Shown here piece after piece: positions 3,675-27,464 of a stretch of 64,000 nucleotides of DNA; within the stretch, counting starts at the first letter, position 1; every line of letters begins with the position of its first letter. A model generated the notes under the pieces. That model made no database searches and had not been told where the DNA came from. It saw only the letters and a list, made by a program, of their open reading frames with translations. The position numbers and the translations under genes were made by a program. Source of the stretch: Candidatus Omnitrophota bacterium (lineage in GTDB: Bacteria > Omnitrophota > Gorgyraeia > Zapsychrales > Zapsychraceae); NCBI GenBank assembly GCA_035292445.1, contig DATDQB010000017.1:55051-119050 (forward strand), in the 5' to 3' direction.

Positions 3675-3788
3675 CAAATCCCAAATACCAAACAATATAC
3701 AAACAACAATGACCAAAACTAAAAAATTGGTTATTGGGATTTGAATATTGTGATTTGTTTGGAATTTGGGCTTTGGAATTTGGAAATT
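3675..3788. repeat. heptad-periodic palindromic element between convergent genes
   Basis: Left arm caaatcc caaatac caaacaa tatacaa acaacaa; right arm ttgg ttattgg gatttg.. tttggaa repeats complementary to it. Lies between two stop codons. Confidence 0.7.
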
Positions 3789-3797
3789 AACTTTCCA

Positions 3798-4754
3798 TCA
3801 CCAAATAATTGATTTCACGCTTTTGGGCATTCCATGAATTTTCCCCACAAACCGCACTTCACGAATAAGGTCAAGATTAAACTTTTCCTTAGCCAGCGCC
3901 GCCATCATTTTGTGCAGCTCGAACACGTCTTTCGCCGTGCCGTTCTTTCTTTTGATGATAATATTGGCATGTTTGGGGAAGATATAAGCCCCGCCGGATT
4001 TTAAAGATTTGCCGCCGGCCTGCTCAAGAAACCACCCTGTGGCCTGGCGTTTTCCAGCCTTGGAGGTGGGTTCAATGTTGCGAAAGAATGATCCGGCACA
4101 AGGTTCTTGGGCAAGGTCAGGATGTTTCTCGTGACGCGTTTTTAAAATACCTTCACGCTCTTTAAGCAGTTCTGCCGGATCACCCTCTTTGAAGCTCAAC
4201 GTAACATCAACAACGATATCACCCGTCTCCTTGAGCTTTGAATGGCGGTAGGAGAAACCGCATTCCTTAGCCTGCGCCGTTCTAAGCGTCCCGGAGGAAG
4301 AGAGCAGGCTGACGCTTTTAACCATATCGCCGATCTGCTTGCCGAAAGCCCCCGCATTACCAACGACCGCGCCGCCCACTGTCCCCGGAATGCCGCTGCA
4401 GGTATTAATTCCTTCATAACCCAATTCGGCGGCAAAGACAGCCAGATCATCAAGGATCGTGCTGCCGGAAACTGTTAAGCTGTTATCGCCTTCTTCAATA
4501 TAGGGTGTCTTGCTGAAATAGCGGATCACGTGGCAATCCAGGCCCTCATCGGCAACGACCAGGTTTGACCCGCCGCCGATCAGGATGAATTTTTCTTTCT
4601 TTGCATAAAGCTCTTTGACCGCATCTATTAACTGCCGGGGCGTTTCACAATTGATAAGCCCCTTGCACGCTCCGCCCAAGCGGAAGGTTGTGTAATCGGA
4701 TAATCTGGCATTTTTAATAATTTCATGGGAGAGAGGAAAAATGATTGATTCCAT
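3798..4754 (-). CDS. murB: UDP-N-acetylenolpyruvoylglucosamine reductase
   Basis: 318 aa with an FAD-binding PCMH domain and a MurB C-terminal domain (..GSNLVVADEG.., ..AGSFFRN..). Confidence 0.9.
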   Translation of the reverse strand: MESIIFPLSHEIIKNARLSDYTTFRLGGACKGLINCETPRQLIDAVKELYAKKEKFILIGGGSNLVVADEGLDCHVIRYFSKTPYIEEGDNSLTVSGSTILDDLAVFAAELGYEGINTCSGIPGTVGGAVVGNAGAFGKQIGDMVKSVSLLSSSGTLRTAQAKECGFSYRHSKLKETGDIVVDVTLSFKEGDPAELLKEREGILKTRHEKHPDLAQEPCAGSFFRNIEPTSKAGKRQATGWFLEQAGGKSLKSGGAYIFPKHANIIIKRKNGTAKDVFELHKMMAALAKEKFNLDLIREVRFVGKIHGMPKSVKSIIW

Positions 4755-4759
4755 TTAAT

Positions 4760-4817
4760 TGTAGGGGCGGACTTTACGTCCGCCCGATTAAGGGCAGGTG
4801 CAAGACCTGCCCCTACA
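4760..4817. other. structured intergenic element: outer stem tgtaggggc/gcccctaca enclosing two hairpins (ggcggac-ttta-gtccgcc and gggcaggt-gcaag-acctgccc)
   Basis: Perfect complementary segments read directly. It exactly fills the 64-nt gap between the moeB-fusion stop and the murB start and has no U-tract. A three-way junction is plausible. Confidence 0.5.
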
Positions 4818-4818
4818 T

Positions 4819-6390
4819 TTATTTGACCGTTTCTTTAAATCGATGACGTAGCGCCTCGATGCCGTCTTTGATGGCAAAAATATTCTCGTAACCTTCTTCG
4901 CGCAGCATCTGCGCCAATTGGGAGCTGCGTACGCCCATGCTGCAAAACAGAAGGTATTTCTTATTTTTGGCAAAAGGGGAGGTGTCGCCCGTGACCCGGC
5001 TTAAAGGAACATGTTCACTTTTGATTTCCATGAGTGGACTATCCGCCCGCTCTTCGGCTTCCCTGACATCGACCAACGTAAAACTTTTCAGCAAATCGGC
5101 ATTTAAGGCGTGGCAATCAATAAGAAATTCCGCCAACGGCTCATAATGCTCTTTACTGATCTGTGTGATGACGGCGTCTTTGCCGCACAGAGGGCAACGG
5201 CTTTCCGGTTTGATCTTCAAACGCCTGATATGGAAATCGGCGACGTTAAGAATCAACAATTCGTTCTCGAACACTTTCTGCATGTTTAGAATGATCCGGA
5301 TCGCTTCCATGGCCTGCAGATGGCCGAAAATGTTGGGGATGACGCCCAGGACGCCTCCGTCGACACATGTTCCCACGCAACCAGGTGTTGGAACGGAAGG
5401 CCACAAACAGCGCAGGCACCCTTTTTGAGAAGGGAGCATGACCCGCAACTGGCCTTCCCATTGAAAAATGCCTGCCTGGATGAGCGTCTTGCGGTTAAGA
5501 AAGCAGGCGTCGTTCAAAAGATATTTTGTTTTAATGTCATCGGTGCAATCAAGGACGATGTCATAGTTCTCGATAAGCCGTTGCGCGTTCTCAAGGTTCA
5601 GGTGTTCCTGGTGCGCGTTGATGGTAACGGAAGGGTTGAGCGAATTGATCTTTTCCTTGGCCACCTGGACCTTGGGCCGGCCGATGTCATCGAACCCGTA
5701 AAGGAACTGGCGGTGGAGGTTGCTGAGCTCAACTTTATCGTGTTCGCAAATGCCTATCGTGCCGACACCCGCCCCTGATAAGCTCATGAGCGCCGGGCAG
5801 CCCAAACCGCCGACGCCCACGATCAAAACCTTGGCCTCTTTCAATTTCTTTTGGCCTTCGGCGCCGACCTCGGGAAGATTGATCTGACGGGCGTAGTAAT
5901 CACTTTCTTCGGGTAACCGGTAACCGGTAACCGGTAACGGCGTGGAGTTACCTGTTACCTGTTTCCCGTACTCCGTTGATTTACAACCCACCCATCCCGA
6001 ATCGCCGCCCGCGTAATATTCCTTTTTCCAAATTGGCAACCGCTTTTTTATCTCATCTATGATATATCGGCAGGCTTTAAAAGCCTCATCGCGATGGGCG
6101 GCCAAGCATCCGACCCACACGGCCATTTGACCGACCTCAATGATCCCCAAGCGATGATAACAGCGAAGTTCGATCGTTGAGAATTTTTCCTTCGCCTCCC
6201 GAAAAATCTCCTCGGCCTCCTTCGTGCACAAGGTTTCTTCGGCTTCGTATTCCAGCCGCAGCACTTTCTTGCCATCGCTATGATCGCGCACACGGCCCTC
6301 AAATGTGGCGAAGGCTCCGGCGCTATCGGCGGTGAAGCCCTCTTTAATGTTGATGCGTTCTAAGGGGAGTGAGGTTAGTTTAAACATCAT
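4819..6390 (-). CDS. MoaE (molybdopterin synthase large subunit) - MoeB/ThiF E1-like adenylyltransferase - rhodanese triple-fusion protein
   Basis: N-terminus matches MoaE (..FEGRVRDHSDG..IWKKEYY). The middle has the ThiF/MoeB Rossmann motif (LIVGVGGLGCPA), RQ motif and CxxC..CxxC zinc site. The C-terminus is a rhodanese with catalytic Cys (FCSMGVRS). The first 15 codons of the track ORF (MLVVREQRTTNNEQR) are encoded by the repeat element at 6387-6450, so the start is set at MMFKL. Confidence 0.8.
   Translation of the reverse strand: MMFKLTSLPLERINIKEGFTADSAGAFATFEGRVRDHSDGKKVLRLEYEAEETLCTKEAEEIFREAKEKFSTIELRCYHRLGIIEVGQMAVWVGCLAAHRDEAFKACRYIIDEIKKRLPIWKKEYYAGGDSGWVGCKSTEYGKQVTGNSTPLPVTGYRLPEESDYYARQINLPEVGAEGQKKLKEAKVLIVGVGGLGCPALMSLSGAGVGTIGICEHDKVELSNLHRQFLYGFDDIGRPKVQVAKEKINSLNPSVTINAHQEHLNLENAQRLIENYDIVLDCTDDIKTKYLLNDACFLNRKTLIQAGIFQWEGQLRVMLPSQKGCLRCLWPSVPTPGCVGTCVDGGVLGVIPNIFGHLQAMEAIRIILNMQKVFENELLILNVADFHIRRLKIKPESRCPLCGKDAVITQISKEHYEPLAEFLIDCHALNADLLKSFTLVDVREAEERADSPLMEIKSEHVPLSRVTGDTSPFAKNKKYLLFCSMGVRSSQLAQMLREEGYENIFAIKDGIEALRHRFKETVK
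5912..5961. repeat. heptad-periodic palindromic element embedded in-frame in the MoaE-MoeB linker
   Basis: (ggtaacc)x3 ggtaac - ggcgtggag - (gttacct)x2; same architecture as the intergenic elements. It translates without a stop as ..QVTGNSTPLPVTGYRLPEE.. Confidence 0.75.
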
Positions 6391-6450
6391 TCGTTGTTCG
6401 TTGTTCGTTGTTCGTTGCTCGCGAACAACGAGCAACTAGCAACGAGCAAC
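6387..6450. repeat. heptad-periodic palindromic element between the ferredoxin 3' end and the moaE-fusion 5' end
   Basis: (ttgttcg)x3 ttgctcg | cgaacaa cgagcaa ctagcaa cgagcaa c - arms of complementary 7-mers. Confidence 0.8.
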
Positions 6451-6459
6451 AAAACTCTA

Positions 6460-6714
6460 TTAATATGTAATTTTCACTGTGCCTTTCAGGATGCTACATT
6501 GGCAACTCAAACGGTTATTGCGGTCCATCCCAAGCTCTTTTTCCTCATCGTTCAGATCGCCCAAATTATCCGCGCCTTCCTGCACTTCGATCTGGCACGT
6601 GCCGCACACGCCGGAATTGCAGCTGAAGGGGATCCCGGATTTCTCACAGACCTCATCGATCCTTGCGCCATCGGGAATATCGTGTTCTTCACCGTCTATG
6701 ATCAACTTTGCCAT
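6460..6714 (-). CDS. small 2Fe-2S ferredoxin (plant-type C-x4-C-x2-C..C motif)
   Basis: 84 aa with ..CNSGVCGTCQ.. and a downstream ..CQC.. Confidence 0.75.
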   Translation of the reverse strand: MAKLIIDGEEHDIPDGARIDEVCEKSGIPFSCNSGVCGTCQIEVQEGADNLGDLNDEEKELGMDRNNRLSCQCSILKGTVKITY

Positions 6715-6721
6715 AAGGAAT

Positions 6722-6832
6722 TAAGTTAATAGTAAATAGTTAATGGCAAATAGTGTTATCGTTCTAAATGGGGCTTCGTCGCCTTTTTGTCATTTCCCCT
6801 ATTAACTATTAACTATTTACCATTAACACTTT
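6722..6832. repeat. heptad-periodic palindromic element with a 47-nt spacer, overlapping the ispH stop
   Basis: Left arm taagtta atagtaa atagtta atggcaa; right arm tattaac tattaac tatttac cattaac. Confidence 0.75.
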
Positions 6833-7767
6833 CATTTTAATGCGTTTTCTATCTCCGGTAAAGCAAAGACAATATTCTTTTCCGGGTTCTCAAAGGCATG
6901 AACTTTGGAGTTGGGGAAATGCTCGTTAATGCGTCCGATCAGCTCATCCACAATGACGCGCGGCACGGAAGCGCCGGAGGAGATGCCGACCTTTCGCTTG
7001 CCCTTAAGCACATTGAAATCCAGCTCATCCGCATTGTCGATGATGTAGCTTTCGCAGCCGCCCTTTTCCCCGGTCTCGCGAAGGCGGTTGCTGTTGGAGC
7101 TGTTAGGGGAGCCGCAAATGATGATGCAATCGCAAAAGGAAGCGAGTTCCTTGACGGCATCCTGGCGGTTTTGGGTGGCGTAGCACAGATCCGAACGGGG
7201 CGGGGCCTGCATCTGCGGGTATTTCTCTTTTAACTTGCGGATCATCTGGGTGGTTTCATCCACGGAAAGGGTCGTTTGGGTGACAACGGCAACGGTTGCC
7301 TGCGGGGCGATATCCAAATTCTCAATGTCACTTTCGTCCTCTACAATATGAAGATATTCAGGGTCGACATACCCGGCCGTGCCTTTCAGCTCCTGGTGGC
7401 CGCGGTGGCCGATCAAAACGGTTTCATAATGTTTCTGGGAAAATTTACTGGCTTCGTTATGGACCTTGGTCACCAAAGGACAGGTGGCATCGACAAAACG
7501 CAGCTTTCTTTTCCTGGCATCCTGCACAACAGCAGGGGGAACGCCGTGGGCGCTGAAGATAATCCTTGAGCCTTCCGGCACTTCATTGACGTCCTCCACA
7601 AAGATCGCGCCTTTTTGACGAAACTCGTTGACTACGTAAGTGTTGTGGACGATTTCGTGGTAAACGTAAAGAGGGGGGCCGTATTGCTCAAGCGCCCTAT
7701 CGACTATGTCGATGGCGAATGACACGCCCGCGCAGAAACCTTGGGTTTTAGCAAGATAAATGTCCAT
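6832..7767 (-). CDS. ispH: 4-hydroxy-3-methylbut-2-enyl diphosphate reductase
   Basis: 311 aa LytB family (..TQGFCAGV.., ..DATCPLV.., conserved Cys triad). Confidence 0.9.
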   Translation of the reverse strand: MDIYLAKTQGFCAGVSFAIDIVDRALEQYGPPLYVYHEIVHNTYVVNEFRQKGAIFVEDVNEVPEGSRIIFSAHGVPPAVVQDARKRKLRFVDATCPLVTKVHNEASKFSQKHYETVLIGHRGHQELKGTAGYVDPEYLHIVEDESDIENLDIAPQATVAVVTQTTLSVDETTQMIRKLKEKYPQMQAPPRSDLCYATQNRQDAVKELASFCDCIIICGSPNSSNSNRLRETGEKGGCESYIIDNADELDFNVLKGKRKVGISSGASVPRVIVDELIGRINEHFPNSKVHAFENPEKNIVFALPEIENALK

Positions 7768-7860
7768 GTAAGCTATTTATTGAATTATTATTAGTATTAC
7801 TTTATAATTGGTGATAATTATAACACTAAATTTTGTAAAGTAAACTCTGATTTCGACCCT

Positions 7861-9078
7861 ATGCAACTAGCCCAAAGACGAAAAACATCAGCCGTTAAAA
7901 TCGGCCCTGTTTCTATCGGGAGCGCCTATCCGGTCGTGATCCAATCCATGACCGACACGCCAACGGCTGACATCGAAAAGACGCTTGCCCAAACGATCGA
8001 ACTCGTTGAGGCCGGAAGCGAGCTGGTGCGCTGGACCGTTAACGATGATGAGGCGGCCCAAGCCGTGCCGGAGATCATCAAGCGCTTAAATGACAAAGGC
8101 TACCAAACGCCGATCATCGGCGATTTTCATTTTAACGGCCACACGCTGTTACGCAAACATCCTGGCTGCGCCAAGGCGCTTTCCAAATACCGGATCAATC
8201 CCGGCAACGTGGGCAAGGGCCAACGGCATGATGACAATTTTACGCAGATCGTTAAAGTCGCCATTGATAACGACAAGCCGGTGCGCATCGGCGTCAACTG
8301 GGGTTCGCTGGACCAGGAACTTCTAACGCTCTTGATGGATGAAAACGCCAAACGGGATGAACCCAGCGATTTTAAAGAAGTCACCTACGATGCCATGGTC
8401 TTAAGCGCTTTGACCAGTGCGAAACTGGCGGAGAAGACCGGATTGCCGCACGATAAGATCATTTTAAGCGTGAAGATGTCGATCCTGCAGGATATGGTGA
8501 CCGTGTACGCGCGCCTCGCCAAACTGTGCAAGTATCCGCTTCATTTGGGATTGACGGAGGCCGGTTCCGAAGTACAGGGGATATCATCGAGTGCCGCCGC
8601 GCTTTCGATTTTACTGCAACAGGGGATCGGGGACACGATCCGCGTGTCGCTCACGCCGCAACCGAATGTCCCGCGCTCCAAAGAAGTCGACGTGTGCAAA
8701 AATATTCTACAATCGTTAGGCTTGCGATATTTCAAGCCGAGTGTCACCAGCTGTCCGGGCTGCGGGCGTACCTCCAGCAATTATTTCCAGATCCTCGCGC
8801 AGGAGATCAATGACCATATCGTACACAAAATGCCGGTGTGGAAAAAGAAACACCCCGGCGTTGAAAGATTGAAGATCGCGGTCATGGGTTGTGTGGTGAA
8901 CGGTCCCGGAGAGAGCCGCCATGCCGACATCGGCATCAGTTTACCCGGCGCTAGCGAGAAACCCATCGCGCCAGTTTATGTGGACGGCAAAGAAAAAATC
9001 ACCCTCAAAGGCGAGCGGATCAAGGAAGAGTTTATTGATATTTTAGAAAATTACATCAAAGAAAAGTGCGCAAAATGA
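7861..9078 (+). CDS. ispG: 4-hydroxy-3-methylbut-2-en-1-yl diphosphate synthase
   Basis: 405 aa GcpE family (..VIQSMTDT.., C-terminal ..[10 protein letters not shown]..). Divergent from ispH across an AT-rich region. Confidence 0.9.
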
Positions 9079-9221
9079 AAAACATAATTTTGCTGATTAT
9101 CCTATCAATCTTTCTTGCTGGCTGTGAAACCGTGAAGGGGCTCGGGAAGGATTTAACCAACACGGGAGAGAACCTGGAGGAAGTGGGGGAAAAGATCAGG
9201 GCCTCGGAAGCTGAAAAATAA
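9075..9221 (+). CDS. entericidin-like micro-lipoprotein (48 aa), missed by the ORF track
   Basis: [48 protein letters not shown] has a lipobox LAGC. The ATG overlaps the ispG TGA (ATGA). Confidence 0.55.
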
Positions 9222-9223
9222 AG

Positions 9224-9278
9224 GGTATCAGGACATCGGGTTTCCCTGATATCCTGATCCTCCGATCCCCTGATAACC
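9224..9278. terminator. hairpin / direct-repeat element between convergent genes
   Basis: tatcagg..cctgata stem, followed by three cctgat direct repeats. Confidence 0.4.
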
Positions 9279-10230: not shown

Positions 10231-10253
10231 GTAAATACCCCTTTAAATGACAT

Positions 10254-10349
10254 CTTAGTCATAAGTTATAAGTCGTAAGGAGTAAGTATTCTGCCCGTCA
10301 TAACGCTGTTTTATCCTTACCGCTTACAACTTACTACTTATAACTTAAC
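10254..10349. repeat. heptad-periodic palindromic element overlapping the 3' end of the PHP phosphatase gene
   Basis: Left arm gtcataa gttataa gtcgtaa ggagtaa; 28-nt spacer; right arm ccttacc gcttaca acttact acttata acttaac. Confidence 0.75.
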
Positions 10350-11141
10350 AGTTCGTTCTATTTTCCTATTCTTAAATAATACATACTCTGCGTACCCGGC
10401 TTCCTTGGCCAGCGCGACGGCCGCTTCAAAATCCGCGCCGACATGCTCCGGCTGGTGGGCATCAGATCCAAAGGTAAGAGGGACGCCGGCTTTTCGATAA
10501 ATTTTAAGGAAGTTGAGCGCCGGATACATTTCTTTGCAGGTTTTGCGCAGCCCCGAGGTATTGATCTCGACCGCCACCCCGCATTCTTTGAACGTCTGGG
10601 CGGTTTTCTTGACCTCATCGCTCATGTCTTGGCTGGCCCGGTGGCCGAATTTCTTGACCAGGTCCACGTGGCCCATGATGTCGAACATTTTCGAGCGGGC
10701 GCTCTGGCGCAGCAGGTCAAAATAGTCGCGGTACACCTGGTTCACGTCTTGTTCATCCCACGCCTTGCGCTGCGCCGGGTCATCGAAGCCCCAATCCTTG
10801 ATAAAGTGCACGGAACCGATGACGTAATCATAGGGGTAGTCATCCAGGATCTTTTTCGTTTTATCTTCGTAACCGGGGATAAAATCCGCTTCGATGGCGA
10901 CTTTGATGCGCAATTCATTTTTATACAACGTGCAGACTTCTTCGATCATGCGGTAATACGAAGGCAGCTGCTCCATGCCCATCGTGATCCCAGGATCACG
11001 CATGTGAACAAAAGGGGCATGGTCGGAAAAACCGATCTCCTGCAATCCAACTTTAATGGCCTGCTTGGCGTACTCTTTGGGCTCGCCGGTGGCGTGGCCG
11101 CAAAGGGGCGTGTGCATGTGATAATCACAAATGGGTTTCAT
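10338..11141 (-). CDS. histidinol-phosphatase, HisJ family (PHP domain)
   Basis: 267 aa with ..DYHMHTPLCGHA.. and PHP metal-binding His/Asp motifs. Confidence 0.8.
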   Translation of the reverse strand: MKPICDYHMHTPLCGHATGEPKEYAKQAIKVGLQEIGFSDHAPFVHMRDPGITMGMEQLPSYYRMIEEVCTLYKNELRIKVAIEADFIPGYEDKTKKILDDYPYDYVIGSVHFIKDWGFDDPAQRKAWDEQDVNQVYRDYFDLLRQSARSKMFDIMGHVDLVKKFGHRASQDMSDEVKKTAQTFKECGVAVEINTSGLRKTCKEMYPALNFLKIYRKAGVPLTFGSDAHQPEHVGADFEAAVALAKEAGYAEYVLFKNRKIERTVKL

Positions 11142-12948: not shown

Positions 12949-13674
12949 ATGACTCAACCATCAAAACCAACGGTACTGATAACAGGCGGCGCCAAGCGCA
13001 TCGGCAAGGCGATCTGCCTGGCCTTGGCCAAGGCGGGCTATAAAATCGCCCTTCACTACCAGCATTCCCACCAGGAAGCCTTGGGAGTACTGAAACAAAT
13101 CAAGAAAAACAAAGGCCAATGCGAGCTGTTTGCCTGTGATCTGTCCAAGGACCGGGCAACGGGACAGCTCATCAAAATGGTCAAAAAAACCTGCCCGGAC
13201 CTAAGCATCCTCGTTAACAACGCGTCCATCTTTGAAAAATCAAATATAAGATCGGCATCATTAGCCTCGCTGAACAAACATTTCGATATCAATTTCAAAG
13301 CGCCGTTTATCTTAACGCAGGAATTCACGAAGGCCTGCCGGAATGGATTGATCATCAACATCCTGGACACCAACATTGTCAGAAACACCGGCCATCATGC
13401 AACGTATCTTTTATCAAAAAAAGCGTTGGCCGAGTTGACCAAAATGAGCGCCGTTGAGTTAGCCCCGTCCATCCGCGTGAATGCGGTTGCGCCGGGATTG
13501 ATCCTCCCGCCTGAAGGCGAAACAGCGGCTTATTTAGACCGAAGGGTCAAAGCCATCCCTTTAAAAAGAAAAGGCGATGCAGCGCAAATCGCCCAAACGG
13601 TCTTGTTTCTCATCGAAAACCCTTACGTAACCGGGCAGATTATTTTCAATGATGGGGGGGAGCACTTGATTTAG
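12949..13674 (+). CDS. pteridine reductase-like SDR (FolM/PTR1-type)
   Basis: TGGAKRIG glycine motif (TGx3RxG, typical of FolM/PTR1) and a YxxxK SDR core. Sits next to folB-folK. Confidence 0.65.
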   Translation: MTQPSKPTVLITGGAKRIGKAICLALAKAGYKIALHYQHSHQEALGVLKQIKKNKGQCELFACDLSKDRATGQLIKMVKKTCPDLSILVNNASIFEKSNIRSASLASLNKHFDINFKAPFILTQEFTKACRNGLIINILDTNIVRNTGHHATYLLSKKALAELTKMSAVELAPSIRVNAVAPGLILPPEGETAAYLDRRVKAIPLKRKGDAAQIAQTVLFLIENPYVTGQIIFNDGGEHLI

Positions 13675-13735
13675 TTCTAAGCCATAAGCCTTAAGCTGTA
13701 AGCTTACGGCTTACAACTTACGACTTACAACTAAC
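13675..13735. repeat. heptad-periodic palindromic element
   Basis: ttctaag ccataag ccttaag ctgtaag | cttacgg cttacaa cttacga cttacaa. Confidence 0.8.
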
Positions 13736-13747
13736 AATTCAATTAAC

Positions 13748-14101
13748 ATGGCTATTATAAGAATTACTAATCTGAAATTACGCTCGATCATCGGCATCAA
13801 CGATTGGGAACGCAAGAAGAAACAGCGGGTGGTCATCAACATCGCCATCCGTTTCAATGCCGCCAAGTCCAGCCAAAGCGACGGGATCGGCGATACCATT
13901 GACTATAAATCCATTACCAAGAGGATTATTAAAAAAGTCACTGGCTCCCGTTATTACTTATTAGAGAAACTTTGCCAAAAGGTCCTGGATATCATCATGG
14001 AGCATAAAATGGTCAAAGAAGCCCTTGTCCGCATTGACAAGCCGGGGGCGCTTCGCTTCGCCGATTCCGTTTCGGTCGAGCTGAGCGCGAAAAGACGATG
14101 A
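13748..14101 (+). CDS. folB: dihydroneopterin aldolase
   Basis: 117 aa FolB fold (..LRSIIGINDWER..). Confidence 0.8.
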   Translation: MAIIRITNLKLRSIIGINDWERKKKQRVVINIAIRFNAAKSSQSDGIGDTIDYKSITKRIIKKVTGSRYYLLEKLCQKVLDIIMEHKMVKEALVRIDKPGALRFADSVSVELSAKRR

Positions 14102-18000: not shown

Positions 18001-18066
18001 TAGCCCTAAGCCGTAAGTCTTAAGCCGTATATTTTAAAGCTTACAACTTAAGGCTTACGACTTAAA
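18001..18066. repeat. heptad-periodic palindromic element
   Basis: tagccct aagccgt aagtctt aagccgt | atattttaaa | gcttaca acttaag gcttacg acttaaa. Confidence 0.8.
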
Positions 18067-18078
18067 TGAGGTATTCCA

Positions 18079-19086
18079 ATGAAGAAATACAACGTGTGCA
18101 TCTTAGGCATCCGCGGGGCCGTTGGGCAGGAGTTTTATAAGATCCTTAAACAACGTAAATTCCCTGTCAAAGAACTGCGCTTGATATCCTCCAGCATTGA
18201 AGAAGAGGGCGCGGAAAAATTGGATGGCATACCGTTCACTAAAGTTTCTGTCGAAGCTTTTAAGGGCATGGACATCGGGCTTTTTTCGCCCGGAGCGAGC
18301 GTCAGCAAGATCTGGGCACCGATCGCGGCTAAGGCCGGGTGTGTCGTCATCGACAATACCAGCCAGTTCCGCATGGATCCTGATGTGCCTTTGGTCGTGC
18401 CTGAGGTCAATCCGGAAGATGTGGCCAAGCATAAAGGCATTATCGCCAATCCCAATTGCTCGACCATTCAGATGGTTGTCGCCCTGAAACCTTTGCATGA
18501 TTACGGTAAGATCAAAAGGATCGTCGTTTCGACGTACCAGTCTGTCTCGGGCGCGGGCTCGGCCTGCATCAGCGAACTCTCCGAACAGGAACAGGCCCAT
18601 GTGAAACATAAACCGATCAAGGTCAAAAATTTCAGCCACCAGATCTTTCATAACCTTATCCCGCAGATCGATGTGCCCATGGATAATCTCTACACCAAAG
18701 AAGAGATGAAGATGGTCAATGAGACCAAAAAGATCATGCATGATGATTCGATCCGCGTGAGCGCGACCTGCGTGCGCGTTCCCGTTGTGCGGGCACACAG
18801 CGAATCGGTCAACATCGAAACGCAAAAGAAGATCACGCGCGAAAAAGCTATTGAACTCTTGCGTAAAGCCCCTGGCGTGCAGATCATCGATGACATCACA
18901 AAAGGCAAATACCCACAGCCGCTTGATGCTGAAGGCAAGGATGATACTTTCATCGGGCGCATCCGCGAAGACGTCTCCATCGAAAACGGCCTTAACATGT
19001 GGATCGTATCCGACAACCTCCGCAAAGGCGCCGCTTTAAATGCCATCCAGATAGCGGAAGAATTGATAAAAAGAAAATTAGTTTAG
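18079..19086 (+). CDS. asd: aspartate-semialdehyde dehydrogenase
   Basis: 335 aa with ..NPNCSTIQ.. catalytic Cys. Confidence 0.9.
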   Translation: MKKYNVCILGIRGAVGQEFYKILKQRKFPVKELRLISSSIEEEGAEKLDGIPFTKVSVEAFKGMDIGLFSPGASVSKIWAPIAAKAGCVVIDNTSQFRMDPDVPLVVPEVNPEDVAKHKGIIANPNCSTIQMVVALKPLHDYGKIKRIVVSTYQSVSGAGSACISELSEQEQAHVKHKPIKVKNFSHQIFHNLIPQIDVPMDNLYTKEEMKMVNETKKIMHDDSIRVSATCVRVPVVRAHSESVNIETQKKITREKAIELLRKAPGVQIIDDITKGKYPQPLDAEGKDDTFIGRIREDVSIENGLNMWIVSDNLRKGAALNAIQIAEELIKRKLV

Positions 19087-19158
19087 CTTATTGGTTTCCT
19101 GTTTCCTGTTACCAGTTACCTGTAATTATCTGGTAACGGGTAACGGGTAACAGGTAAC
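19087..19158. repeat. heptad-periodic palindromic element
   Basis: cttattg gtttcct gtttcct gttacca gttacct g | taattatc | tggtaac gggtaac gggtaac aggtaac. Confidence 0.8.
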
Positions 19159-19162
19159 TTTT

Positions 19163-20011: not shown

Positions 20012-20446
20012 ATGAAACAAAAAACATATCTCGCTAAGGAAAAAGACGTTGTGCGGACGTGGTATCTGATCGATGCCAAGGATAAGATCCTGGGCCGCAT
20101 CGCCACCAAAGCAGCAACGCTTTTGCGCGGTAAGCATAAGCCGAGTTTTACTCCCCATGTGGACACGGGGGACATGGTTATTATCATTAACGCGGAAAAG
20201 GTGCGGGTCACGGGTAATAAGCTGAAAGATAAAATTTACTCGAGGTATACGGGATATCCATCAGGGCGAAGGCAAATGACATTAGAGCAATTCTTAAAGA
20301 AAGCACCGACAAGAGTCATTGAATTGGCCGTCAAACGCATGATCCCCACGGGGCCATTAGGTTACCGAACGAGGATGAAATTAAAGGTATACGCGGGAGA
20401 AACTCATCCGCACCAGACGCATAAACCGATTCCGATTGAAATATAA
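20012..20446 (+). CDS. rplM: 50S ribosomal protein L13
   Basis: 144 aa with ..TWYLIDA.. Confidence 0.95.
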   Translation: MKQKTYLAKEKDVVRTWYLIDAKDKILGRIATKAATLLRGKHKPSFTPHVDTGDMVIIINAEKVRVTGNKLKDKIYSRYTGYPSGRRQMTLEQFLKKAPTRVIELAVKRMIPTGPLGYRTRMKLKVYAGETHPHQTHKPIPIEI

Positions 20447-20450
20447 AAAA

Positions 20451-20519
20451 GTCACCAGTTACCCGTTACCTGTTACCAGATAAAACAGGCAACTGGTAAC
20501 CGGAAACAGGTAACTCGAG
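20451..20519. repeat. heptad-periodic palindromic element between rplM and rpsI
   Basis: gtcacca gttaccc gttacct gttacc | agataaaacaggcaa | ctggtaa ccggaaa caggtaa c. Confidence 0.8.
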
Positions 20520-20534
20520 GGAGTTTTAATAGAA

Positions 20535-20930: not shown

Positions 20931-20966
20931 TCAGCAGTTAGAAATAAACAATAGTAGTAGCCAGCG

Positions 20967-21017
20967 AAACCTATCTCACGCTCCAAAAAGGGTTTGACGA
21001 GATAGGTTTTTTATTTT
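20967..21017 (+). terminator. intrinsic terminator after rpsI
   Basis: aacctatctc ... gagataggtt followed by ttttatttt. Confidence 0.55.
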
Positions 21018-21089
21018 AGTATAGAACATTGTTTCAAATGACCCTAACCTCTGTTTTTCTAAGAGGTTACGAATAAAAAGGACCTAAAA

Positions 21090-23248: not shown

Positions 23249-23249
23249 T

Positions 23250-24101
23250 ATGGAAGAAGTCATTAAAAAAGCTAACATCCTGATCGAGGCGATCCCTTAC
23301 ATCCATGCGTTCCGCCGGAAACTGTTCGTGATCAAATTCGGTGGCAGCATCCTGGATAATGACGCGATCCGCCAGAATGTCCTGGAAGACATTGTTTTCT
23401 TAAGCTATGTCGGCATCCGCACGATCCTGGTCCACGGCGGCGGCCCGCACATCACGGCGCGCATGAAAGAAGCCGGTTTGAAAAGCGAATTTCACGAAGG
23501 TATCCGGGTAACGGATAAAAAGACGTTGGAGATCGTGACGGAGGAGCTGACCAAGCTCAATGAAAAGATCGTCAAGGAGACCAAAGATCTTAAAGGCGAT
23601 GTCACCGGGCTCAAGGGGCACGAGAACATCATCCACGTGCAGAAACGAAAGGCCTCGCGCGATCTGGGCTTTGTCGGGACGATCACCAACATCGATAAAA
23701 AAGCCTTGTCGGCCCACTTAAAGAAGGGGCACATCACCGTCATTTCCCCCATGGGATTATCGGTAGAGAAGATCCCCCATAATATCAACGCGGATGAAGT
23801 CGCCGCGGCGATCGCGAATTCCCTGGAGGCCGAAAAACTGGTCCTGTTAACGAACGTGCAAGGGGTCATGCGAAATCCGCAAGACGCCGAATCGCTGATA
23901 TCAACGCTTAAGGTGAACGAAATTGACAATTTAATTAAGAGTAATGTGATCCAAGGCGGCATGATACCGAAAGTGCAATCCTGCATCGAGGCGATCAACG
24001 CGGGCGTTAAAAAGACCCACATTGTCGATGCGCGGATCCAGCACGCGCTCTTGCTGGAGTTCTTTACCGACAAAGGTATCGGCACGCAAATTATACCCTG
24101 A
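23250..24101 (+). CDS. argB: acetylglutamate kinase
   Basis: 283 aa AAK family (..VIKFGGS.., ..VHGGGP..). Confidence 0.9.
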   Translation: MEEVIKKANILIEAIPYIHAFRRKLFVIKFGGSILDNDAIRQNVLEDIVFLSYVGIRTILVHGGGPHITARMKEAGLKSEFHEGIRVTDKKTLEIVTEELTKLNEKIVKETKDLKGDVTGLKGHENIIHVQKRKASRDLGFVGTITNIDKKALSAHLKKGHITVISPMGLSVEKIPHNINADEVAAAIANSLEAEKLVLLTNVQGVMRNPQDAESLISTLKVNEIDNLIKSNVIQGGMIPKVQSCIEAINAGVKKTHIVDARIQHALLLEFFTDKGIGTQIIP

Positions 24102-25282
24102 TGAAAAAATCTGACATATTAACAACCTATAAAGAATATATCCTAAATACCTACTCACGAACGGAAGGCATTTTCGTGAAAGGCAAGGGGATGACGCTCA
24201 TTGATATTGACGGAAAAAAATATCTGGATTTTTTTCCGGGCTGGGGCGTCAATAATCTCGGGCACTGCCATCCGAAGGTGATGGCCGCGGTGCGGGACCA
24301 AATTTCGAAGCTGATCCATATCCCGAACAATTTTTATCACCCGAACCAGGCCAAATTGGCCAAAGAAATTATCCGCAACACATTTCCCGGGAAAGTGTTC
24401 TTTTGCAACAGCGGCGCCGAGGGCTGCGAGGCCGCCATCAAATTCGCCCGGGCTCATGGCAAAAAAAATAATCCTGAAATTATTACAATGCAAAATTCTT
24501 TTCACGGACGAACGTTAGGAGCGTTGGCTGCTACGGGACAACAAAAGTATCGAAAGGGATTTGACCCGTTACCGGGCTTCAAAATTATTCCTTTTAACGA
24601 TATCAAAGCCGTCAAGGAGGCGGTTACGGATGAAACGATTGCGATCATGCTGGAGCTCATCCAAGGTGAAGGCGGTATCAATATCGCGAGCCAAGAATAT
24701 GTCCAAGAACTTCGTGCGCTATGCGATGAAAAAAAGCTGTTATTGATTTTCGATGAAGTGCAAACAGGCATGGGACGCACCGGAGAGATCTTTGCCTTTA
24801 AACATTACGGGGTGACACCGGATCTGATGGTTCTGGCTAAAGCCTTGGGCGGCGGACTTCCCATCGGCGCATTAGTTGTAAAAAAGGACATCTCCTATAT
24901 TTTTACGCCTGGCATGCATGCCTCGACATTTGGAGGAAGCCCGCTGATTACAAAAGCATCGCTGGCTGCATTCAAGGCTATTCATGCGGAAAAAATGCTC
25001 CCCAATGCCAAGGCCATGGGAAAATATTTAATGACCGGGCTTACTCGATTGAAAGAAAAATTTTCGTGCATCAAAGACATTCGCGGCGTGGGGCTGATGG
25101 TCGGGGTTGAACTAACTTTTGAGGGCAAAAAAGTGTTTGAAAAGTGTTTCGAGAACGGGCTCATCATCAATTGCACCCAGGAAAAGGTATTGCGCCTGAT
25201 GCCGGCTTTAAACGTCACCAAAAAGCAGGTGGACCGCGCGCTTTATATTTTGGAAAAATCTCTTAAAACGGTTACGGGGTAA
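24101..25282 (+). CDS. argD: acetylornithine aminotransferase
   Basis: 393 aa class-III aminotransferase. Confidence 0.85.
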   Translation: MKKSDILTTYKEYILNTYSRTEGIFVKGKGMTLIDIDGKKYLDFFPGWGVNNLGHCHPKVMAAVRDQISKLIHIPNNFYHPNQAKLAKEIIRNTFPGKVFFCNSGAEGCEAAIKFARAHGKKNNPEIITMQNSFHGRTLGALAATGQQKYRKGFDPLPGFKIIPFNDIKAVKEAVTDETIAIMLELIQGEGGINIASQEYVQELRALCDEKKLLLIFDEVQTGMGRTGEIFAFKHYGVTPDLMVLAKALGGGLPIGALVVKKDISYIFTPGMHASTFGGSPLITKASLAAFKAIHAEKMLPNAKAMGKYLMTGLTRLKEKFSCIKDIRGVGLMVGVELTFEGKKVFEKCFENGLIINCTQEKVLRLMPALNVTKKQVDRALYILEKSLKTVTG

Positions 25283-25284
25283 AC

Positions 25285-26199
25285 ATGGCTCGACATTTAT
25301 TGAATTTAGAGGACCTGGCATCCGAGGAGATCCTTCGGATCATGGACATGACCGAGAAGGCCAAGAAGAACAAGACGTGGCACCACGACCTTCTCAAGGG
25401 CCGCACGATCGGGCTGGTCTTTCAAAAGCCGTCCAACCGCACCCGCGTTTCTTTCGAGGTGGGCATCACCCAGCTGGGCGGACATTGCCTTTATTTGGGG
25501 CCGGATGAGATCAATCTAGGCGTGCGTGAATCGACTTCCGATGTGGCCAAAACCCTGTCACGCTTTTTGGACGGGATCGTGGCCCGCACCTTTTCCCATG
25601 AGGATATCATTGAGTTGGCCAAGCAGGCCGACGTTCCGATCATCAACGGCTTATCTGATCTGTACCATCCCTGTCAGGCCTTGACGGATATTTTCTCGAT
25701 CAAAGAAAAGTTCGGGACGTTTAAAGATATCACGCTCGCTTATATCGGCGATGGCAACAATGTCTGCCATTCACTGCTTTTGGCCTGCAGCAAAGTCGGG
25801 ATAAACATGAATATAGCGACCCCTCAAGGGTATGAACCGAATTTTACGATCGTCAATATGGCCAGAAAGCATTGCGAAGTTTCTAAAGCGCATATCTCCA
25901 TCAGCAATTCACCCCAAGAGGCGGCGCGGCAAGCGAATGTGCTGTATGCCGACACGTGGGTCAGTATGGGGCAGGAGGCCGAAGCAGCTAAGAAGCTTCT
26001 GGACTTTGACCAATTCCAGATCAACAAAGAATTGGTGAAATTGGCCAATAAAAATTACATTTTTATGCACTGCCTGCCGGCGCACCGCGGCCAGGAAGTG
26101 ACCGAAGATATTATCGATGGGCCGCATTCAATCATTTTTGACCAGGCGGAAAACCGTTTGCACACGCAAAAAGCGATCTTGATTTTCTTATATTCATAA
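25285..26199 (+). CDS. argF: ornithine carbamoyltransferase
   Basis: ..STRTR.. and HCLP motifs. Confidence 0.9.
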   Translation: MARHLLNLEDLASEEILRIMDMTEKAKKNKTWHHDLLKGRTIGLVFQKPSNRTRVSFEVGITQLGGHCLYLGPDEINLGVRESTSDVAKTLSRFLDGIVARTFSHEDIIELAKQADVPIINGLSDLYHPCQALTDIFSIKEKFGTFKDITLAYIGDGNNVCHSLLLACSKVGINMNIATPQGYEPNFTIVNMARKHCEVSKAHISISNSPQEAARQANVLYADTWVSMGQEAEAAKKLLDFDQFQINKELVKLANKNYIFMHCLPAHRGQEVTEDIIDGPHSIIFDQAENRLHTQKAILIFLYS

Positions 26200-26203
26200 A
26201 GGA

Positions 26204-27376
26204 GTGAAGATGAAAAAAGTTGTCTTAGCATATTCGGGCGGGTTGGACACCTCCTGTGCGATCAAATGGCTTCAAGAACGCGGCTATGAAACGATCGCCT
26301 TTATCGCCGATGTCGGACAAAAGGAAAATTTTGCCGAGATCAAAAAACGCGCGTTGAACACAGGCGCGAAAAAAGTCCATGTCGTTGACCTGAAAAAAGA
26401 ATTCGTTCAAGATTACGTTTTCCCGGCCATTAAAGCCAGCGCCGTCTATGAAAAGAAATATTTCCTGGCAACGGCCCTTTCGCGGCCGTTGATCGCCAAG
26501 CACCAAGTATATATCGCGCAAAAAGAAAAAGCGCAGGCGATCGCCCACGGCTGCACGGGAAAAGGCAATGACCAGGTGCGTTTTGAAGTGACGGCACGCT
26601 TGCTGGATCCGACATTGGAAATTATCGCACCGGTGCGCATATGGGAATTTAAAACGCGCGATGAAGAGATCGATTACGCCAAAGCCAAGAACATCAAGAT
26701 CGATGTCACCAAGAAAAGCCCTTACAGCGTTGATCTGAACCTCTACGGGCGCAGCATCGAATGCGGCGTGCTGGAAGACCCCTGGCGCGAGCCGCCGGAA
26801 GAAATTTATTTCCTGACGCAAAATCCGCTTAAAGCGCCGAACAAACCGACGTACATTACGGTGGATTTTGCCAAAGGTGTACCGGTCAAGATCAACGGCA
26901 AAAGCTATGCACCGGTTGAACTGATCCACCAGTTGAACGCGATCGGCGGGAAGAACAGTGTTGGCCGTGTCGATATGGTGGAAAACCGGTTAGTTGGCAT
27001 CAAATCCCGGGAGATCTATGAAAACCCAGGGGCCACCATCATCCATACCGCCAAGCACGAATTGGAGACTCTGGTTCTGGATCGGGAGACCATGCATTAT
27101 AAAGAATCCATCTCGCAAAAATATGGCGAGATGATCTATTACGGATTGTGGGAAACACCGCTTAAGAAACAACTGGATGCATATTTCAATTCCATCTCGC
27201 AGCGCGTGAGTGGAACTGTGCGGTTAAAATTGTATAAAGGTAATTGCACGGTGGTGGGACGAAAATCCAAGCACTCCCGTTATCAGGAAAAGCTCGCCAC
27301 TTACGGAAAAAAAGATGTTTTTGATCAAAAATTAGCGGATGGATTCATTAAACTGTGGGGCATGCCATATTCGTAA
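26204..27376 (+). CDS. argG: argininosuccinate synthase
   Basis: ..AYSGGLDTS.. PP-loop. Confidence 0.9.
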   Translation: MKMKKVVLAYSGGLDTSCAIKWLQERGYETIAFIADVGQKENFAEIKKRALNTGAKKVHVVDLKKEFVQDYVFPAIKASAVYEKKYFLATALSRPLIAKHQVYIAQKEKAQAIAHGCTGKGNDQVRFEVTARLLDPTLEIIAPVRIWEFKTRDEEIDYAKAKNIKIDVTKKSPYSVDLNLYGRSIECGVLEDPWREPPEEIYFLTQNPLKAPNKPTYITVDFAKGVPVKINGKSYAPVELIHQLNAIGGKNSVGRVDMVENRLVGIKSREIYENPGATIIHTAKHELETLVLDRETMHYKESISQKYGEMIYYGLWETPLKKQLDAYFNSISQRVSGTVRLKLYKGNCTVVGRKSKHSRYQEKLATYGKKDVFDQKLADGFIKLWGMPYS

Positions 27377-27464
27377 ATAGTTAATAGTAAATAGTGGATA
27401 GTGGATTTTAATGCCCCCGGACATTTTAATTTGTCCTATTAACTATGAACCATTTACTATTCAC
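27377..27464. repeat. heptad-periodic palindromic element between argG and argH
   Basis: atagtta atagtaa atagtgg atagtgg | 27-nt spacer | tcctatt aactatg aaccatt tactatt cac. Confidence 0.75.

Follow-up and report, generated by a model that had tools for sequence, protein, structure and literature searches.

Cyanobacterial heptamers of the STRR type were reportedly described by Mazel in 1990. TAACTGA repeats form 169 direct sets and one indirect set, and S1, Csp and CsrA were proposed to bind them (MacGregor 2015, PMC4679880). In Xanthomonas, the GGGAATC/GGGANTN heptamers form 70-75 convergent pairs with a mode of 4 units, and about three quarters of the arrays lie in convergent inverted pairs capable of forming stem-loops (Rehm et al. 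2015, PMC4692102). Intergenic positions account for 89-93% of these arrays, whose mean distance to the end of the preceding ORF is 28 nt and whose neighbours include genes of every functional class. Their length and sequence vary between close species, their units contain conserved and variable positions, and they have no known function (PMC4692102).

[quoted passage not shown] 2009, PMC2700814). Several families are present in the genome, each with 3-5 tandem units of 7-9 nt in which some positions are poorly conserved. The arrays form opposite-strand pairs at variable distance, one of them between proB and proA, and some heptad elements are intragenic; binding of IHF/HU was proposed (PMC2700814). 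Heptad hairpins are a real, little-studied kind of bacterial repeat, already known from Xanthomonas and Geobacter, and the paired heptad architecture is not new (PMC4692102, PMC2700814).

Ten elements with heptad-periodic arms

We analysed a 64,000-nt stretch of DNA (the window) and the flanking 20 kb, 84 kb in all. A preliminary description had named ten loci that share one two-armed architecture. All ten are present at their coordinates (E1-E10) and are listed below with a degenerate relative that it had missed (E11). Only E2 is assigned to a strand.

E1, 3661..3789: compound hairpin in the convergent gap between a giant ORF (stop 3673) and murB (stop 3798); arms at 3675-3702 (CAAATNC units) and 3757-3788 (TTTGGNN), with a second possible inner right arm at 3727-3750
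E2, 5906..5969 (described earlier as 5912-5961), minus strand: arms GGTAACC x4 and GTTACCT x2-3
E3, 6382..6454: arms TTCGTTG x4.6 and CGAGCAA x4 with a 7-nt loop; junction of a 2Fe-2S ferredoxin gene, fd (stop 6460), and moaE (start codon 6390, which it abuts)
E4, 6722..6831: arms AGTTAAT x4 and CTATTAA x4 with a loop of ~45 nt; ispH/ferredoxin junction (ispH stop 6832, ferredoxin start 6714)
E5, 10254..10350: arms AGTNNTA x4 and CTTANNN x5 with a 36-nt loop; junction of a PHP-domain gene and a glyoxalase gene, the right arm covering the PHP stop and last codons (10338-10350)
E6, 13671..13741: loopless palindrome, arms NNTAAGC x4 and CTTACNN x5; the TAG stop of an SDR gene (13672-13674) comes from its first degenerate unit, and folB starts at 13748
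E7, 18001..18068: hairpin of AGCCNTA units and their complement at the leuB/asd junction (leuB stop 18000, asd start 18079)
E8, 19090..19162: hairpin, arms GTTWCCN x4 and GGTAACN x4, at the asd/truA junction (asd stop 19086, truA start 19163)
E9, 20444..20528: hairpin at the rplM/rpsI junction (rplM stop 20446, rpsI start 20535)
E10, 27368..27466: hairpin of GTNNATA units at the argG/argH junction (argH start 27484); the argG TAA stop (27374-27376) lies inside its first unit
E11, 9223..9278: degenerate relative with a period of ~8 nt and a CCTGAT core, in a convergent gap and adjoining the ahpC stop (9279)

The proposed 7-nt periodicity of both arms is significant in every locus (20 of 20 arms against shuffles). 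After correction for lags 3-12, the shuffle p-value is ≤0.007 for all 20 arms and ≤5e-5 for 12, and the lag-7 identity ranges from 0.64 to 0.96. Scanned for segments with at least 16 of 21 matches, the window contains 16 at lag 7, compared to 0.0 in 20 dinucleotide shuffles, and 0-2 for each of the other periods within 3-13. The 11 segments at lag 14 represent a harmonic of 7. The commonest unit count per array is 4, and several arms display a 14-nt ABAB super-period.

The inverted-repeat arms are 20-42 nt long, 71-95% complementary and 0-47 nt apart, and they pair convergently in all ten elements. The predicted stems, 25-35 bp in length and of mixed or A+T-rich composition, have energies of -20 to -41 kcal/mol. 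RNA fold z-scores of the four elements tested are -4.4 to -7.5.

Proximity to stop codons, also noted in the preliminary description, holds for nine of the ten elements, which start 0-7 nt past a stop codon or overlap it. The label "at gene 3' ends" does not apply to E2, a translated element. An uninterrupted minus-strand ORF (4819..6390) reads through it, and in the encoded MoaE-ThiF/MoeB-rhodanese fusion protein E2 supplies the linker KQVTGNSTPLPVTGYRLPEE between domains, a 13-aa insertion compared to short-linker homologues. In two genomes an in-frame heptad hairpin occupies the same linker position, and the fusion proteins are 63% identical.

As in Xanthomonas, the tandem 7-nt units number about four per array and form close convergent pairs, which are intergenic near the end of the upstream ORF in nine of ten cases (E2 is intragenic). 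The Xanthomonas units are G-rich and of a single type per genome, and a G-quadruplex reading was offered for them, whereas at least five types and no G-tracts are found here, in an uncultured PVC/Omnitrophota-like lineage. As in G. metallireducens, paired arrays of 3-5 units fall into several multi-copy classes, here within 27 kb. However, no unit matches the G. metallireducens consensuses GTTGCTYN, TCTCCGTS[Y] or MTYCTGA. Those sites were read by their authors as putative IHF/HU-type binding sites. The STRR and TAACTGA repeats are likewise tandem, intergenic heptanucleotides next to genes of any function, ribosomal protein operons included, with a sporadic phylogenetic distribution. Unlike the elements described here, they consist of a single unit sequence without inverted pairs. 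Most are direct, many are longer, and their usual place is immediately before a start codon.

Unit families and orthologous junctions

The unit consensuses (CAAATNC, GGTAACC, TTCGTTG, AGTTAAT, AGTNNTA, NNTAAGC, AGCCNTA, GTTACCN and GTNNATA) represent about five types, with at least five cores in 27 kb (GTTACC, GTAAG, ATAGT, CAAA and CGTTG). Three types are multi-copy families, homologous unit by unit, with 2-3 copies each within the 27 kb. A unit consists of an invariant core of 4-6 nt and 1-3 variable bases; the confinement of variation to 1-3 positions has a Fisher p of 1.6e-8, a value inflated by the shared ancestry of the units.

The preliminary description had argued that the units differ between copies, so that no single sequence was transposed. 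The data do not support this. E8 and the reverse complement of E9 are 88% identical over 69 nt, loop included, and both retain 4+4 units at 12% divergence. E6 is homologous to E7, and E4 to E10; the latter two have the same DNA orientation, with flanking genes on opposite strands. These homologies indicate that the elements are dispersed repeat families, like REPs. Within an element, the arms pair via the common 4-6-nt core, in any register. Some unit variants are found in one arm only, and variable positions are complementary at 31 of 62 sites in the best register, little more than the 73 of 201 in shifted registers.

The elements are not standard REPs, as had been stated, since the GTAG/CGTC tag is absent from E1-E10. 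They resemble REP, REPIN and BIME sequences in being short imperfect palindromes that form genome-specific multi-copy families (copies counted in 84 kb) and are transcribed as stem-loops. Both kinds are extragenic, located at 3' ends or between cistrons in both orientations, sometimes nested or clustered, and missing from the orthologous sites of relatives. Unlike REPs, the arms are internally periodic, pair in any register and form longer stems (25-35 bp). Separately from E1-E10, a GTAG-type palindrome of the classical kind is present at 4756-4821.

The preliminary description had proposed a comparison of orthologous junctions, and in relatives these sites are empty or occupied by hairpins of other units. 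The syntenic relative L006 has gaps of 0-25 nt at six of six junctions. L086 carries heptad hairpins of other units at leuB/asd and asd/truA and none at rplM/rpsI, while L087 has small, non-periodic hairpins at the orthologous junctions. The rplM/rpsI junction, where E9 is located, is empty in three relatives. We compared the ispH-fd-moaE/moeB-murB cluster in five Omnitrophota-like relatives, whose junctions are compact, contain GTAG-type palindromes, or contain periodic hairpins of 7 or 8 nt. Periodic hairpins are found at fd/moaE in three genomes and at leuB/asd and asd/truA in two. Their maintenance at fd/moaE in three genomes could reflect selection for a function.

Many unrelated genomes from metagenomes share the heptad-hairpin architecture. 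A survey of 2.2 Mb of unrelated loci detected periodic-arm hairpins with lag 7 (21), lag 8 (5) and lags 4, 6 and 9 (1 each). Arrays had an inverted partner in 47 of 133 cases, compared to a control value of 6 of 133. At 9 of 13 co-directional junctions the stop was nearer than the next start, and divergent junctions were not clearly avoided in this survey, which used crude gene calls. Every other genome shows yet further unit cores. L012 and L172 contain nested and composite arrays, as seen in other small palindromic repeats.

Unit gain and loss

The suggestion of a repeat-generating process gains support from a one-unit difference between assemblies, from unit counts in Gallionella and from the 14-nt ABAB super-periods. 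Contig ERZ27254861 k141_362612 matches the window over 14.7 kb except for one AGACGCC unit in the following array:

1935..1974, plus strand: AGACGCC x3 + AGACACC as a direct unpaired array within the giant ORF

This array has one 7-nt unit more or fewer between assemblies, and its 3-unit version frameshifts the gene. In two Gallionella species, a GTAGC-heptad element at the same junction has 3+4 units (L048) and 4+2 units (L051), where the decayed hairpin has a z-score of -2.4. Up to five assemblies (ENA, JGI, Logan) agree exactly on E5-E10 and three on E1-E4; seven assemblies show no other difference across E1-E10, and the intergenic arrays display no visible instability.

Assemblers can collapse or expand repeats, and one 7-nt difference between assemblies was indeed observed. 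That the elements are a product of chance or of short-read metagenome assembly is nevertheless extremely improbable, given the 16 arrays where 0.0 are expected, the identity of E1-E10 in several assemblies (ENA, JGI, Logan) and the presence of the architecture in unrelated genomes, published isolate genomes included.

Origin and possible roles

We see about an even chance that the elements are REP-like dispersed repeats of simple-sequence units, whose origin and spread take place at the DNA level and which the host tolerates as self-folding spacers. Each arm is a short simple-sequence array in which a unit of 7 nt, or sometimes 8 nt, is repeated 3-5 times. Gain and loss of units through replication slippage is shown by one array here and one orthologous pair in Gallionella. 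Whole elements are copied into new intergenic sites in either orientation, as the E8/E9 and E4/E10 homologies show. We infer that they survive only where the added DNA does no harm. Such sites would lie just past stop codons, between the cistrons of an operon, in convergent gaps and, exceptionally, in an in-frame protein linker. Because the arms carry the same core inverted, the transcript pairs with itself to give a long imperfect stem with several registers, which probably makes the insert tolerable within an operon. REP hairpins stabilise upstream mRNA in E. coli, and by analogy the stem may have a secondary role in protecting or marking the upstream cistron's 3' end. Published speculation links the preference for 7 nt to the polymerase footprint; we suggest that loops of more than 4 nt may escape mismatch repair.

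Alternatively, the elements could be RNA structures under selection. As stem-loops between cistrons, they would make mRNA stability or processing differ within operons, acting as an exonuclease barrier or an RNase III-type site, or they would be terminators lacking a U-tract, and the periodicity would be a mere trace of stem growth. The predicted stems are very stable, and nine of ten elements begin at a stop and fill the spacer as far as the ribosome-binding site or start codon that follows. Promoter-like sites found in other gaps place the elements inside operons, and only E1 among E1-E10 lies in a convergent gap. The stabilising effect of the E. coli REP hairpins and the recurrence of periodic hairpins at fd/moaE (three genomes), leuB/asd and asd/truA (two) are consistent with such a role. 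We still regard it as unlikely. The sense strand has no G·U advantage: better folding is predicted for it in 4 elements and for the antisense strand in 5, with 3 versus 5 in other genomes. Homologous copies occur in either orientation, covariation unit by unit is absent, the hairpin has decayed in Gallionella L051, L006 has empty junctions while those of L174 and L175 are compact, and E2 is translated. As for termination, the earlier view that these are not intrinsic terminators is borne out by the missing U-tract and the 25-35-bp stems. A terminator scan called none of E1-E10, and at most 4 T follow the stem (E8 and E9 have only 4). The lineage does use canonical U-tract terminators, one of them after rpsI and conserved in L086. 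An Rfam search of 3600-27600 returned nothing at the gathering score, and with E-values up to 1 the sole match was Ocean-V, at 29 bits versus a threshold of 75.

In another reading, the elements would be binding-site arrays, in which protein subunits each read one 7-8-nt unit of core and spacer, on duplex DNA or single-stranded RNA, and together they would make up a network for global regulation or nucleoid organisation. Among known precedents, the omega repressor of pSM19035 recognises contiguous 7-bp heptads, direct or inverted, while ParG recognises 4-bp boxes with 4-bp spacers and MetJ 8-bp metboxes. On RNA, HutP binds (UAGNNNN)x3, and the cold-shock domain has a footprint of 6-7 nt. The units here similarly combine an invariant core with variable spacer positions, the arms are complementary only through the core and in any register, the arrays stop at 3-5 units with periods of 7 and then 8, and binding proteins were proposed by earlier authors. 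The likeness to the ribbon-helix-helix arrays of omega, ParG and MetJ extends to a handful of contiguous 7-8-bp core+spacer units in direct or inverted order. Those arrays, however, are located at promoters or partition sites beside the cognate gene, with one core per protein, whereas the elements here have many cores and follow the stops of unrelated housekeeping genes instead of lying in promoter gaps. At least five cores in 27 kb, and other cores in each genome, would require many specific readers. Close relatives lack elements at the same junctions, and the window's annotated genes include no ribbon-helix-helix, Csp or similar gene that could serve as a cognate partner nearby. We consider such a role improbable.

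Dispersal of slippage-prone repeats, the reading given about an even chance above, has evidence against it as well. Neutral slippage does not fit the invariant core with variation at 1-3 positions, the sharp cap at 3-5 units, or the array in the fusion linker, where 7-nt slippage would cause a frameshift. The lack of visible instability between assemblies, the 4+4 units of both E8 and E9 and the periodic hairpins at fd/moaE in three genomes also speak against this reading. No mobilising enzyme was found in the 84 kb, which also counts against it. There is no transposase, RAYT included, among the window's annotated genes or the genes called in the flanking 20 kb. In a comparison with MITEs, the window revealed no IS element, and no target-site duplication is recognisable at the E8/E9 boundaries or between filled and empty rplM/rpsI junctions.

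A further reading, which we think quite improbable, is that periodic-arm hairpins form a distinct class of self-propagating element in many phyla, with core-and-spacer units read by dedicated machinery that has a 7-8-nt footprint and caps the arrays at 3-5 units. If so, candidates for this machinery would include a single-strand DNA transposase, an OB-fold protein and a ribbon-helix-helix protein. It would also keep the elements at matching operon junctions, and in frame in the MoaE~MoeB linker, in Omnitrophota-like genomes whose fusion proteins are 50-63% identical.

A second direct array is present in the same giant ORF as the array at 1935-1974:

61..96, plus strand: direct unpaired array of CAGACGC type

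Both coding arrays were missed in the preliminary description. The array at 61-96 encodes a copy of the protein repeat encoded at 1935-1974 (…EEQAPDTRRQTQDDRDEAM).

Periodicity and anatomy of the elements

Ten hairpin elements (E1–E10, window 3661–27466) carry arms built of tandem 7-nt units. Segments were scored as periodic when 16 or more of 21 positions matched at lag p; by this fixed rule there are 16 at lag 7, against 0–2 at each of the compared periods from 3 to 13 and 0.0 in 20 dinucleotide shuffles. TRF gives 24 period-7 rows within 62–27406 and, beyond this region, only one weak 15-nt row at 35504. All 20 arms are individually significant after correction for the ten lags tried (p ≤ 0.007; ≤ 5 × 10^-5 for 12 arms), and their inverted-repeat pairing spans 20–42 nt. 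Predicted transcript folding ranges from -20 to -41 kcal/mol, with z-scores of -4.4 to -7.5 versus shuffles in the four elements tested; the folds consist of 5–7-pair stems with a mismatch at about every seventh position. The ten periodic hairpin loci of the preliminary description are thereby confirmed.

Stacking all units of an element, from both arms, shows variation in 1–3 adjacent positions and an invariant core of 4–6 nt. Three or four different bases are common in a variable column, against a single one in each core column. The significance of this partition (p = 1.6 × 10^-8, per-element permutation test with Fisher's combination) is overstated, since duplicated units are not independent of one another. 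Complementarity between the arms runs essentially through the common core, whose pairing is 90–100% in the best register and just as high after a shift of 7 or 14 nt. The variable positions do little better in the best register (31/62 paired) than in the shifted ones (73/201), so the stems are register-degenerate; the same comparison revealed no unit-by-unit covariation between arms. The arrays are short, with a mode of 4 units in the window and 3–4 elsewhere, and six or more units are rare.

It had been proposed that the elements do not derive from one transposed sequence, since their units differ. This holds in that alignment separates at least five families; it does not hold for E8/E9, E6/E7 and E4/E10, which are homologous pairs. 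E8 (asd|truA) and the reverse complement of E9 (rplM|rpsI) are 88% identical over 69 nt, each unit and the loop included. E6 (SDR|folB) and E7 (leuB|asd) can be aligned from a leading TAG through to the end. E4 (near ispH) and E10 (argG|argH) match in both arms and in DNA orientation, yet their flanking genes lie on opposite strands. More distant kinship links E2 to E8/E9 and E5 to E6/E7. Three of the families thus have 2–3 copies within 27 kb, and these face either way with respect to transcription. A BLAST search of plasmids with E8 gave no match, and no target-site duplications were recognisable at the E8/E9 boundaries or between filled and empty rplM|rpsI junctions. No Rfam family matches the elements. 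A sub-threshold Ocean-V RNA match overlapping E7 (18016–18097, minus strand; 29 bits vs a gathering threshold of 75, E-value 0.018) is most likely due to chance.

Gene junctions in the window and in its relatives

Eight elements lie at co-directional junctions, E1 in a convergent gap beside murB and E2 within an ORF. The reported location at gene 3' ends applies to nine of the ten, which start 0–7 nt past a stop codon or include it, and fails for E2. The first degenerate unit of E6 is the TAG stop of the SDR gene, the argG TAA falls within the first unit of E10, and the right arm of E5 holds the stop and last codons of the PHP gene. A 7-nt unit with TAA or TAG places stops in all three frames, and such units may account for some of these overlaps; as a general role, an all-frame stop signal was rejected, as the sense 5' arm contains units with a stop in only about 5/9 elements. 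The elements occupy the spacer nearly up to the next start codon, with 0–20 nt left. Neither of the two divergent gaps in window 1–28 kb carries an element. Avoidance of divergent junctions was not borne out in a survey of 2.2 Mb of loci chosen solely for encoding Asd: with crude ORF calls, elements occur at 13/656 co-directional, 5/141 convergent and 3/164 divergent junctions, with no clear depletion.

A terminator scan calls none of the elements, in line with the earlier claim that they are not intrinsic terminators. Downstream of rpsI is a classical hairpin plus T-run (20950–21030) that, unlike the heptad elements, is kept in position and largely in sequence in a relative (L086, 3660–3720); this indicates that ordinary terminators are in use in this lineage. 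The fabF|leuB and truA|rplM gaps contain promoter-like sites with an extended -10, and therefore E7, E8 and E9 are probably located inside operons.

The window is gene-dense, and the neighbours of the elements are housekeeping genes (murB, moaE~moeB, ispH, ispG, folBK, fabG-acpP-fabF, leuB, asd, truA, rplM-rpsI and the arg operon). No elements are found from 27.5 to 64 kb, where genes overlap or abut; this is weak evidence of a regional bias, because only about six gaps of at least 60 nt exist there. The flanks beyond the window contain no more arrays (6.2 kb of giant-gene coding upstream, 9.9 kb of tight operons downstream).

Identical sequence is present in ENA, JGI and Logan assemblies (contig up to 132 kb). 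The closest named homologues of one window protein belong to Candidatus Omnitrophota (47–50% identity), and the gene order ispG / ispH-fd-moaE~moeB-murB (fd, ferredoxin) is common to the window and Omnitrophota MAGs. With the giant gene described below, this marks the uncultured source organism as probably PVC/Omnitrophota-like. Closer relatives were sought to trace single elements over time, the best being only 68–73% identical in Asd. The nearest species-representative genome is a MAG labelled Planctomycetales (L006, only 71% in Asd); L086 (73%) and L087 (68%) are nearest in the metagenome set.

The presence and absence of elements at orthologous junctions, compared among these relatives, is not conserved. 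L006 keeps the gene order of window 6.8–29 kb with gaps of 0–25 nt at 6/6 junctions of E5–E10. In L086, leuB|asd and asd|truA carry heptad hairpins of very different units (TATCAGN, AAGTGTC), and the rplM|rpsI gap is only 15 nt; L087 has ordinary small hairpins at the orthologous sites. As rplM|rpsI and other junctions are empty or different in relatives, E9 is a lineage-specific copy of the E8 family. The ispH-fd-moaE~moeB-murB cluster is similarly variable. Nested heptad hairpins occupy the fd|moaE junction of L172, and 7- or 8-nt periodic hairpins three junctions of L173 (fusion proteins 63% and 50% identical to that of the window, respectively). L174 and L175 are compact and without elements at these junctions; L176 has GTAG-type palindromes instead. 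The window holds a single copy of the latter type:

Window 4756–4821, between moeB and murB: compound GTAG-type palindrome, TGTAGGGGCGGAC-TTTAC-GTCCGCCC ... GGGCAGGT-GCAAG-ACCTGCCCCTACA

Its 26-nt left part is identical in L176 (6655–6750; Omnitrophota-like, 38% G+C, about 50% protein identity), which suggests a widespread REP-like element.

E2 lies in the uninterrupted minus-strand ORF 4819..6390, which encodes MoaE, ThiF and rhodanese domains, a fusion architecture found in hundreds of homologues. Compared with short-linker homologues, E2 constitutes a 13-residue insertion in the interdomain linker. At that linker position L172 (560–2176) carries a heptad hairpin in frame, built of different units, and L173 (1551–3194) has three hairpins in the linker, which is thus a hotspot for in-frame palindromic inserts in these three sequences. 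The L172 gene call has 13 extra N-terminal codons (MSLASCTLFLIKF), which reach the upstream hairpin's right arm.

Unit number and occurrence in other bacteria

Direct, unpaired 7-nt arrays are present inside a coding sequence of unusual length:

Window 1–3673: giant ORF, continuing for 6.2 kb or more upstream; gene calls of 5980 to 6166+ codons (>6000), running off the contigs (L169, L170, L171)

Omnitrophota have been reported to possess giant genes (bioRxiv 10.1101/2023.11.21.568195; PMC10066038). Pfam matches on record for this ORF include 2-Hacid_dh_C, adh_short and Hydrolase; its last 1214 codons have no Pfam match. Protein repeats of the type MLGEE..PD.RRQT..RDEAM are encoded by the heptad arrays.

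Arrays change by whole units. Over 14.7 kb, the sole difference between the window and contig ERZ27254861 k141_362612 is one AGACGCC unit at 1935–1974. With four units the giant ORF is open; with three, the gene caller splits it into 5604+ and 561 codons. The difference would reflect either population variation or an assembly slip, and amounts to exactly one unit in both cases. At one junction upstream of asd, two Gallionella species share a GTAGC-heptad element whose unit numbers differ (3+4 vs 4+2), and the hairpin is good in one species and poor in the other. No unit-number variation is visible across E1–E10 between assemblies of this population, which are 100% identical.

The 2.2-Mb survey yielded 132 hairpins whose arms reach 20 nt or more. 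Strongly periodic arms were found in 21 hairpins at lag 7, in 5 at lag 8 and in one each at lags 4, 6 and 9; the sources are MAGs labelled Deltaproteobacteria, Nitrospirota, Saganbacteria and Gallionella as well as unlabelled metagenome contigs. An inverted partner within 250 nt is present for 47/133 period-7 segments, vs 6 in a complement-only control. The density in the window is about 10 times this background.

Nested or composite arrays occur in L172 and in L012, a MAG labelled Deltaproteobacteria (UBA6106). In L012 (5140–5400, 13796–13858, 19993–20060), heptad hairpins are nested three deep (outside in: GCTCATN, AAATCCN, AAATGTTC), and two composite arrays (GCTCATN)3(TCGATNA)4 lie inverted 6 kb apart. 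Like heptamers recur in unrelated genomes (L012, L073, L121, L122, L173 and E1 of the window): GGATTT-, GGGATT- and GGAATT-like, a set that also takes in the published Xanthomonas GGGAATC and Nostoc GGGGATT, as well as GTAAGG-like and CTGA/TCAG-like units. This recurrence could reflect convergence or a common constraint.

Small dispersed repeats in cyanobacterial heptamer arrays were reportedly described by Elhai and colleagues in 2008. Xanthomonas genomes contain about 185 GGGAATC/GGGANTN arrays each, mostly of four units, with 70–75 convergent pairs per genome (Rehm et al. 2015, PMC4692102). These arrays are 89–93% intergenic, on average 28 nt from the upstream ORF, under-represented at divergent gene pairs, transcribed and species-variable, and no function was found for them (PMC4692102). 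In G. metallireducens, Aklujkar et al. (2009, PMC2700814) listed 24 pairs of four octanucleotides, 21 pairs of three 8-9-mers, eight pairs of five heptanucleotides (one between proB and proA) and 49 GGACCGG x4 elements, intra- and intergenic, and guessed at IHF/HU binding. TAACTGA direct repeats have also been described (MacGregor 2015, PMC4679880). Two Omnitrophota genome papers searched on this point make no mention of such repeats. The architecture is thus already known, but unnamed and unexplained; new here are another lineage and non-G-rich units of several families. The Xanthomonas repeats are G-rich and the window elements are not, yet both share the inverted pairs, the four units and the position after stop codons. 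As the layout is not peculiar to G-rich repeats, a G-quadruplex rationale cannot be general.

Origin and possible roles

Reports since 2007 rank heptanucleotides as the most frequent of the long simple-sequence repeats in many bacteria, perhaps via the polymerase footprint according to Mrazek et al. 2007 as summarised in PMC4679880. They have no accepted function or mechanism. Here, several unrelated cores adopt one common geometry within a single genome. The arms are complementary through the repeated core only, which lets the stems pair in any register. An element can ride in frame within the linker of an enzyme, and a one-unit change in a coding array is enough to frameshift a giant gene.

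Whole elements are copied to new junctions in either orientation. The earlier interpretation is supported in part: a repeat-generating process and the distinction from terminators stand; the step from differing units to a non-transposed sequence holds only partly. We give about an even chance to the view that the elements are REP-like repeats, formed and spread at the DNA level and persisting at sites where an insert does no harm. Their self-complementarity would make an untranslated insert tolerable within an operon. Any stabilisation of the upstream message would be secondary.

The invariant core, the cap at 3–5 units, the preference for 7 and the retention of a periodic in-frame linker hairpin in two diverged genomes are unexplained by spread as DNA, and therefore keep two alternatives alive. 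The first, a protein that reads the 7–8-nt period, has precedents in omega, ParG, MetJ, HutP and cold-shock domains; we consider it unlikely. The second is a selected intercistronic RNA structure, which we also judge improbable and for which the expected strand asymmetry is absent. Among E1–E10, the sense strand folds better in 4 and the antisense in 5, with one tie or convergent case; elsewhere, periodic hairpins favour sense in 3 and antisense in 5, and non-periodic ones in 15 and 10. This G·U strand comparison is underpowered and shows no bias of the kind left by selected RNA stems. If the elements are selected, they would represent a new kind of intercistronic signal; if they spread as DNA and are not selected, they offer a clean natural setting in which to study how compact genomes are shaped by slippage and palindromes. 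In either case they are a source of annotation errors, namely false N-terminal extensions and split giant genes.

Outside the element-bearing region, a c-di-GMP-I riboswitch (51499–51596, plus strand; 53 bits vs a gathering threshold of 35) precedes a pilin-like gene (51690–52106) that carries an N-terminal methylation motif. This locus sits where a type IV pilus / type II secretion cluster ends (44076–51347; PilM, secretin, ATPase, platform protein).
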